NCBI RefSeq assembly: GCF_054482525.1
Contig: NZ_CM137006.1
Reading direction: 5' to 3' (one strand)
DNA: 64,000 bases
Shown here: positions 3,001 through 6,000 of the stretch, piece by piece
Position numbering within the stretch: the stretch's first letter is position 1
Layout of the letters: each line of letters starts with the position of its first letter
Made by a program: the position numbers

Positions 3001-6000
3001 ATACCGATTACGTGAGTAATGAATCAGGGACGCTTTCGCGATTATTTAAACTACCTCAGCATGGGACCACCGTCCGCACAGAATTGATTGCGGGGATGAC
3101 CACTTTTTTAACCATGGTGTACATCGTTTTTGTGAATCCGCAAATCCTCGGCGCGGCACAAATGGACCCGAAAGTGGTGTTTGTTACCACCTGTTTGATT
3201 GCCGGTATCGGCAGTATTGCGATGGGGATATTTGCTAACTTACCCGTGGCGCTGGCTCCGGCAATGGGGCTGAACGCCTTCTTTGCGTTCGTGGTCGTGG
3301 GGGCGATGGGTATCTCCTGGCAGACCGGGATGGGCGCGATATTCTGGGGCGCAATTGGGCTATTTTTGCTCACGCTATTTCGTATCCGGTACTGGATGAT
3401 CTCCAACATTCCATTAAGTTTACGTATTGGTATCACCAGCGGAATCGGATTATTTATCGCCTTAATGGGATTAAAAAATACTGGCGTTATTGTCGCCAAT
3501 AAAGACACCCTGGTGATGATTGGCGATTTAAGTTCTCACGGCGTGTTGTTAGGTATTTTAGGGTTTTTTATTATAACCGTGTTGTCATCACGTCATTTTC
3601 ATGCCGCGGTGCTTGTTTCTATTGTGGTGACGTCTTGCTGTGGCTTATTTTTCGGTGATGTTCATTTTAGCGGCATCTATTCCATTCCGCCTGATATTAG
3701 CGGCGTCATTGGTGAAGTAGATTTGAGCGGCGCGTTAACACTTGAACTCGCCGGTATCATTTTCTCCTTTATGCTGATCAACCTATTTGATTCATCAGGA
3801 ACATTAATTGGTGTAACTGATAAAGCTGGCTTAATAGATAGTAACGGTAAATTCCCCAATATGAATAAGGCGCTGTATGTTGATAGCGTCAGTTCGGTGG
3901 CGGGTGCGTTTATCGGCACCTCGTCTGTTACCGCCTATATTGAAAGTACTTCTGGTGTGGTGGTCGCACGGGGCTGACGGCTGTCGTGGTCGGCGTTATG
4001 TTCCTGTTAGTTATGTTCTTCTCACCGCTGGTGGCGATGGTTCCTCCTTACGCAACCGCCGGAGCGTTAATCTTTGTTGGCGTGCTGATGACTTCGAGCC
4101 TGGCGCGCGTTAACTGGGATGATTTTACCGAATCGGTGCCCGCATTTATTACCACGGTGATGATGCCCTTTACTTTCTCGATCACCGAAGGGATTGCACT
4201 CGGCTTTATGTCGTACTGCATCATGAAAGTGTGCACCGGGCGCTGGCGCGATCTGAACCTGTGTGTGGTGGTGGTCGCAGCTCTGTTTGCACTGAAGATT
4301 ATTCTGGTGGATTAGTAACTGGCGAGGGTTTCCAGATATCATGAGTTCTGATTACGCAGGAGAACTCATGATCTGGATAATGCTCGCCACGCTGGCGGTA
4401 GTGTTTGTGGTTGGTTTTCGGGTGCTGACATCCGGGGCCAGAAAAGCGATTCGCCGTCTCAGCGATCGGCTGAATATCGATGTCGTACCCGTGGAGTCGA
4501 TGGTCGATCAAATGGGAAAGTCAGCCGGTGACGAATTTTTACGTTATTTGCATCGCCCGGATGAGTCGCACCTGCAAAATGCCGCGCAGGTATTGCTCAT
4601 CTGGCAAATTGTCATTGTCGATGGTAGCGAACAGAACCTGCTGCAATGGCATCGGATTTTACAAAAAGCCCGCCTTGCCGCTCCCATTACCGATGCTCAG
4701 GTCAGGCTGGCGCTGGGTTTTCTGCGCGAAACCGAACCTGAAATGCAGGATATTAATGCTTTTCAGATGCGCTATAACGCGTTCTTTCAGCCTGCCGAGG
4801 GCGTTCACTGGCTGCATTAAAACCGCTTCGTCTTATCAGCCTACAGACCGCGCCTGACCTGTAGGGTGGATAAGGCGTTCACGCCGCATCCGGTATCGGA
4901 ACTGACAGTAGGTGAACGCATTATCTACGTTCTATTTACAGCAGCACCTCCAGCCCGTGTTTTTGCACAATGCTGAGCAGTTTTAATGAAATGCCATTGG
5001 GGCGTTTAGCGCCACTTTCCCATTTTTGTACAGTTGAAACGCTGGTATTGAGATAGTGAGCGAAGACGGGCTGACTCACTTTTAATTTTTCCCGCAGTGC
5101 TTTTATCTCAACAGGTTGTAAGTCTTGCACGCTGGTCAGGCAGGCTTTGTCAAAAGTACGCATCGTTTCGGCAGAAATAGCATCGACGCTGGACAATCCA
5201 GCCGCTGCGCTGTGAATAGCCTCAAATGCAGGACTTTTAAATTTAGTTTTTGCAGTCATAGCAGATCTCTGTCAGTTCTTTAGTGTTAATCATTGCTGTT
5301 AGTTGGGCTTTCGTCAGGAAGCCATAATGCTTTGCAATTTCACGAAACCCAGCCAGTTCCTGACTATTGATGTTCGACATATCCTGTTTTGCATATAAAA
5401 ACGTGTAAAACCAATTACTTCCCCCTTTCGCCAGAATAATTGCACGCTCACGATTTTGGTGAAGGCGCTTTTTAAAAACGCCACCGCCAAGTGCATCAGC
5501 TTTACCTTGTTCCGTTTCTAAAATGGCCCGGCACAACTCTTCATCTGTTATTGCATGAGACCTGGCTTCACTTGCAAACCATTTGGTTTTAAACACGCGC
5601 ATATCGTTGAGATCCTGTTATTAAAGTATATCACCAAGTGCAATACTTTATCCCTTGTTCCCAACACAATCGCGAAAATACATATCACCTTGCCCTATGA
5701 TTTTTATTTCTTCGAGCAGCCTCGAACTTTTCCCACAACACCGTAAAAGTTGCAAAAACGTTAAATGCGTCACACATTTCAATGTTAAAGTGGTCGGCTT
5801 TTCCCCTGAAACATGCCACGGGTAACACCATGAGTGAATTTATTGCCGAAAACCGCGGCGCGGATGCCATCACCCGACCGAACTGGTCAGCCGTTTTCTC
5901 GGTGGCGTTTTGCGTCGCCTGTCTGATTATCGTTGAGTTTTTGCCCGTCAGTTTGTTGACGCCAATGGCCCAGGATTTAGGCATTTCGGAAGGGGTTGCC

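Follow-up and report, generated by a model that had tools for sequence, protein, structure and literature searches.

Two adenine permeases of Escherichia coli, PurP/AdeP and YicO/AdeQ, are described by Papakostas et al. (2013), as that work is cited in PMC10976475. Deletion of yicO gave no phenotype of its own in purine base-analogue sensitivity tests (PMC3809563). The adenine deaminase gene beside it (ade, adeD) is cryptic in laboratory E. coli, where H-NS represses it and insertion elements, some of which lie in adeQ, activate it (PMC2753651; PMC13274399), and mutations around adeQ/adeD and adeP were recorded in experimental evolution when adenine was available (PMC13274399). AzgA-like transporters have 14 transmembrane segments (TMS, or TM), with TMS1-4 and 8-11 as the core and TMS5-7 and 12-14 as the gate, and the glutamate of the IES motif in TMS10 binds the substrate (PMC11527162).

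In this study, adeQ was analyzed in a stretch of E. coli DNA of 64,000 nucleotides (the window, numbered from its first base). The window's adeQ is an unexceptional pseudogene, lineage-specific and derived from a redundant transporter gene. It is of no new type, and public assemblies already contain the allele.

The adeQ locus and the remainder of the window

The gene was identified as the adeQ (yicO) orthologue by position. It is divergent from adeD (ade, yicP; 1047..2813, minus strand, intact, 588 aa) and lies directly upstream of yicN (DUF1198; 4368..4820, plus strand, intact, with a window-private synonymous substitution at 4580, AAC to AAT), the same neighbors that flank annotated adeQ in relatives. 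Window positions 2900-4400 were 99.5% identical over 1.5 kb to the annotated adeQ relatives, with a 7-bp gap as the sole difference, and ATG 2988 of the window gene corresponds to the start that RefSeq gives for adeQ in PCN033 and SCU-102. PCN033, the nearest intact relative, is a porcine ExPEC strain of phylogenetic group D (PMC4578781). From 245 to 3958 there were zero differences between the window and SCU-102, in which adeD is annotated as intact (WP_001065708.1).

The adeQ reading frame is split. The 5' fragment (2988..3977, plus strand) contains wild-type codons 1-324, then five frameshifted codons (V V A R G) and a premature TGA arising from the frameshift (3975..3977, plus strand), giving 329 aa vs. 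444 aa. The 3' remnant (3959..4315, plus strand) contains wild-type codons 327-444 and the stop codon in the original frame, out of frame with the 5' part. Much of the initial annotation of this DNA was borne out by these comparisons: the naming of the gene as yicO/adeQ, the NCS2 permease ORF ending in ...SGVVVARG at that TGA, the remainder of the permease in another frame (running on to 4315), and the intact adenine deaminase gene alongside.

Xan_ur_permease (PF00860) was matched by residues 32-405 of the intact AdeQ allele in Pfam (E = 2.5e-45), and PF00860 matches are recorded for both fragments of the deletion allele. In NCBIfam release 20 (E ≤ 0.001) zero families were matched by intact AdeQ (L001:3089-4420) or by either fragment; membership by curated HMM was therefore unusable, and Pfam and PDB comparisons were used instead. 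The RefSeq name ‘adenine permease AdeQ’ presumably comes from a non-HMM rule. A complete 444-aa ORF with GGRTG and TM11-14 was absent in the window gene. As the product ends at residue 329, with GGRTG replaced by ARG-stop, the gene is filed as an adeQ pseudogene and not as a functional permease.

Between yicN and nepI, a RelE/ParE-family toxin and a helix-turn-helix (HTH) antitoxin-like gene are encoded on the minus strand (4936..5602); this pair was missing in several other lineages (L012, L016-L018), in which yicN is directly followed by nepI. Further downstream, iatC (7216..18333, plus strand) encodes an inverse autotransporter adhesin of 3705 aa with many tandem units of ~292 nt. It matches the SCU-102 gene in length and differs from it by two substitutions alone (7524 and 13761); in PCN033 iatC is annotated at only ~3.6 kb, either from variation in repeat number or from repeats collapsed in that assembly. 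For window ~18383..25345, the SCU-102 annotation gives a type III secretion remnant (eilA regulator, IpaD/SipD-like tip protein, SctE translocon subunit and SycD-like chaperone), after which come yicS, nlpA, yicL, setC and a tRNA-Sec gene with a rhuM fragment. The nlpA gene (26150..26967, plus strand) consists of two overlapping ORFs, of 64 aa (26150..26344) and 220 aa (26305..26967); the sequence is that of SCU-102, where it is annotated as ‘frameshifted’ by NCBI, and it constitutes a second pseudogene of the window, common to the complete-genome relatives.

The seven-base deletion and its effect on AdeQ

Window positions 2900-4400 were compared by megablast with 5,426 complete RefSeq E. coli genomes; the locus was present in 5,404 of these, with a near-full-length match in 5,386. 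The best matches (PCN033, WP8-S18-ESBL-07, SCU-102 and others) covered 1508 bases vs. the 1501 of the query at 99.5% identity, and alignment to the intact relatives was identical except for one 7-bp gap. Over this stretch the intact alleles read TCTGGTGT GGCGGTC GGTGGTC GCACGGGGCTG, and in the window TCTGGTGT is joined directly to GGTGGTC GCACGGGGCTG, with seven bases missing between them. The intact allele carries TCTGGTGTGGCGGTCGGTGGTCGC and the deletion allele reads TCTGGTGTGGTGGTCGC. The gap lies between 3958 and 3959, and GG microhomology at the junction (3959..3960, plus strand) allows its placement up to 3960/3961, the missing bases being GGCGGTC or, equivalently, GCGGTCG or CGGTCGG; the loss relative to intact alleles was seen in the alignments, in a base-by-base comparison and in the BLAST indel listing.

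The lost bases correspond to wild-type nt 972-978 (codons 324-326), a position within the coding sequence of the conserved TM10 motif GGRTG. They form the first unit of an imperfect tandem 7-mer, GGCGGTC-GGTGGTC, whose remaining unit is at 3959..3965. The repeat has two units, identical at 6/7 positions, and 2 nt (GG) of microhomology at the junction, a very short match that may be coincidental. It was described from the alignment alone, and a repeat finder with a 6-base seed returned zero repeat families for the intact repeat region, the 7-mer repeat having no exact 6-base seed. Because the repeat finder did not pick up so short a repeat, slippage is regarded as plausible rather than demonstrated. 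Tandem repeats with junctional microhomology are a classic substrate of slipped-strand and microhomology-mediated deletion, and the removal of one 7-mer unit would most likely have occurred by replication slippage or microhomology-mediated deletion.

Residues 1-324 of the product are unchanged, residues 325 and 327-329 are altered (A to V, G to A, G to R and R to G), and a stop stands at position 330. The frame shifts after Val324, and five aberrant residues precede the TGA. The product loses 115 of 444 residues, from the rest of TM10 to TM14. In the PDB comparison the lesion region aligned with the Arabidopsis AZG1 structure 8irl (E = 4e-61), and this AdeQ-AZG1 alignment indicates that GGRTGLTA is conserved from bacteria to plants. 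The truncated product retains TM1-9 together with the beginning of TM10, and with it the glutamate of the IES motif that binds the substrate. From what is known of the family, a product that lacks GGRTG and everything from the remainder of TM10 through TM11 to the gate helices TM12-14 would not make a working transporter, and on this analysis the truncated AdeQ is almost certainly inactive. Gene calls in the 3' remnant gave either a 105-aa ORF from ATG 3998 or a 109-aa ORF from GTG 3986, and no AGGAGG-like ribosome-binding sequence was seen by eye upstream of either start in 3961..3997.

Carriers of the deletion and other disrupted adeQ alleles

The whole 64,000-base window aligned with SCU-102 in one piece, with 7 substitutions (244, 4580, 7524, 13761, 36208, 39788 and 49381) and a single gap opening of 7 bases. 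That only one indel was found, even across the 11-kb tandem-repeat iatC, indicates an assembly that is not indel-prone. Neither PCN033 nor other carriers of the deletion have the substitutions at 244 and 4580, which on the sequences compared are taken to be restricted to the window's strain or sub-clade.

The 329-aa truncated protein occurs, with identical sequence, on 31 public contigs (NCBI, Logan, ENA); of these, 24 were read and three were checked for the deletion at the nucleotide level. The identical deletion was present in all three, which come from independent samples (Logan SRR5936505, Logan SRR29421599 and an ENA metagenome scaffold, L014). Both Logan contigs have C at 244 and 4580, as in the intact relatives, where the window has T; the ENA scaffold has C at 4580 and ends short of 244. 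As these carriers are without the window-private substitutions, the deletion is older than the window's strain and was inherited within a clade. A 91-base query across the deletion junction was matched at full identity in 0 of 5,392 matching complete RefSeq genomes, the best identity of 92.9% corresponding to the 7-bp gap. The allele is therefore uncommon, and it provides a clean lineage marker, present in public drafts and in at least one ENA metagenome scaffold. A degenerate pattern for both 7-bp deletion types described in this study gave 0 matches in JGI metagenome contigs, a result of little weight, given the rarity of E. coli in those samples.

Decay of adeQ is recurrent, and it is already annotated in a major lineage. 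In adeQ of the O157:H7/O145 type (EDL933 and PV15-279), one C is lost at wild-type nt 903; this allele was found in 331 complete RefSeq genomes, including O157:H7 and O145, and is annotated by NCBI as ‘frameshifted’ (e.g., ECpv15279_RS24555). The old EDL933 gene Z5153 is the C-terminal fragment of the same allele. One C is lost at nt 985 in GCA_903971855.1. In GCA_949769095.1 (L013:2440-2510), CACGGGGCTG is contracted to CACGGGCTG (GGGG to GGG) with a frameshift; this change, which may be real or an assembly error, was found in no complete RefSeq genome. Paired +1 and -1 changes were seen in CP042638 (L012), and two further loci had larger adeQ rearrangements.

Another 7-bp deletion was found in Logan SRR34730114 (L018:2434-2500), from a B2-type strain, in which GTCGGCG is lost between two GTC triplets; this allele was also absent from all complete genomes. 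It shares with the window a 7-bp loss in the same 14-bp tandem 7-mer, in the GGRTG region of TM10, and a 329-aa fragment. It differs in its end points and surviving unit, in a Nissle 1917/ATCC 25922-like background ~3% diverged, and in having no RelE/HTH pair nearby. With end points, background and neighborhood all different, it represents an independent event. This second deletion in the same repeat would add weight to deletion between short direct repeats, and it is a hint that the sequence coding for TM10 contains a small hotspot of deletion. Since the lesion set was retrieved by looking up C-terminal fragment ORFs, which biases it to breaks just upstream, no statistical clustering is claimed.

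Many proteins named ‘adenine permease AdeQ, partial’ (311-325 aa) are derived from O25b:H4-ST131 draft assemblies, on contigs of ~95.8 kb, which suggests a recurrent contig break inside adeQ in that lineage, possibly at an insertion sequence.

Weighing of the explanations and comparison with known systems

If the strain's adeQ were intact and seven bases had been dropped by an assembler or polisher, the absence of the junction from all complete RefSeq genomes would be readily accounted for. Such an artefact is nevertheless very improbable. The 7 bp lost are not part of a homopolymer, no other indel separates the 64 kb from SCU-102, and the identical deletion was present in a metagenome and in runs assembled independently, all of which have other bases than the window at linked sites. 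These observations contradict the homopolymer sequencing error offered in the initial annotation and favor genuine inactivation, its other option. That annotation had placed the lesion in the G-run at 3970..3973 (plus strand), as a 1-bp contraction of five G to four. In favor of a one-G loss, whether by real slippage or by homopolymer error, one added base does restore a single 442-aa ORF, and a GGGG to GGG contraction of this very run exists in a different strain, GCA_949769095.1. Against it, the run CACGGGGCTG has four G in the intact alleles of PCN033, WP8-S18 and 2014C-3075 as well, and relatives that are identical in all other respects differ solely by the 7-bp gap ~12 bp upstream; the comparison with yicO of other E. 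coli that had been proposed upheld the disruption of the gene and not its position in the run. Deletions of 7 and of 1 leave the same frame, so one base added anywhere nearby restores an ORF of this length, and the protein obtained by adding one G is not the ancestral one, being two residues short and without the conserved GGRTG motif. Reads with five G, named as the sign of an intact gene, concern the wrong change, since an intact adeQ keeps the run at four G and has seven other bases in addition. A one-G loss would also presuppose close relatives with CACGGGGGCTG and without the GGCGGTC unit; the aligned intact relatives have GGGG and GGCGGTC. The probability left to it is close to nil.

Retained function, whether by programmed +1 ribosomal frameshifting or in a split permease made up of the 329-aa and 105-aa fragments, might be considered from the calling of both fragments as ORFs with Xan_ur_permease matches on record. 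It is extremely unlikely: the junction query matched 5,392 complete genomes, none of which has the deletion, which indicates that this is no conserved recoding site, the product would still be without the conserved TM10 segment, and no AGGAGG-like sequence was seen by eye before either start of the 3' remnant. For a phase-variable locus or programmed frameshift, only two repeat units and no recoding signal were found, with the junction in 0 of 5,392 complete genomes. A different question is whether loss of adeQ was positively selected in host-associated lineages, for example by limiting adenine or toxic purine-analogue uptake, with the TM10 tandem 7-mer as a recurrent target. Independent lesions in several lineages (the nt 903 frameshift in 331 complete genomes, the second 7-bp deletion, and other 1-bp and larger lesions) are consistent with this, as are the mutations around adeQ/adeD and adeP in evolution experiments with adenine available (PMC13274399). 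However, the lesion sample is biased, the 105-aa C-terminal ORF used for retrieval being called only when the break is just upstream; intactness was inspected in a minority of the 5,386 genomes with near-full-length matches; and relaxed selection on a redundant, silenced gene would be equally expected to produce recurrent decay. Positive selection is therefore considered unlikely. It is similarly doubtful that the 14-bp tandem 7-mer is a deletion hotspot which, together with the fixed O157:H7/O145 frameshift, would point to convergent selected loss of adeQ in host-associated lineages and not to neutral decay.

The adeQ of the window is accordingly read as a genuine, vertically inherited loss-of-function allele from which one unit of a tandem 7-mer was deleted (probability of about 0.93), known here from assembled sequence. 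The loss is probably neutral or nearly so; its tolerance is probably explained by the paralogue AdeP and by the reported silencing of the locus by H-NS. Carriers of the deletion would be expected to rely on AdeP alone for high-affinity adenine uptake. For annotation, the label should be adeQ pseudogene, with a 7-bp deletion as the cause; a G should not be added, and the break should not be dismissed as a homopolymer error. It is one more case of the repeated decay of adeQ in E. coli and fits a redundant gene in a silenced locus.

Compared with the intact adeQ of PCN033, SCU-102 and WP8-S18-ESBL-07 (WP_001513042.1), the window allele occupies the same locus, is 7 bp shorter and gives a 329-aa vs. 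a 444-aa product. The O157:H7/O145 adeQ is likewise split, into an N-terminal ORF of ~320-357 aa and a C-terminal ORF of ~105-109 aa, but its lesion is different and independent, lies in another background, and is found in 331 complete genomes vs. 0 with the window deletion. AdeP (PurP), A. nidulans AzgA and Arabidopsis AZG1 (8irl) belong to the same PF00860 fold family and have the TM10 signature IES..G...GGRTGL; these three are intact, working transporters, whereas the window gene ends inside TM10.
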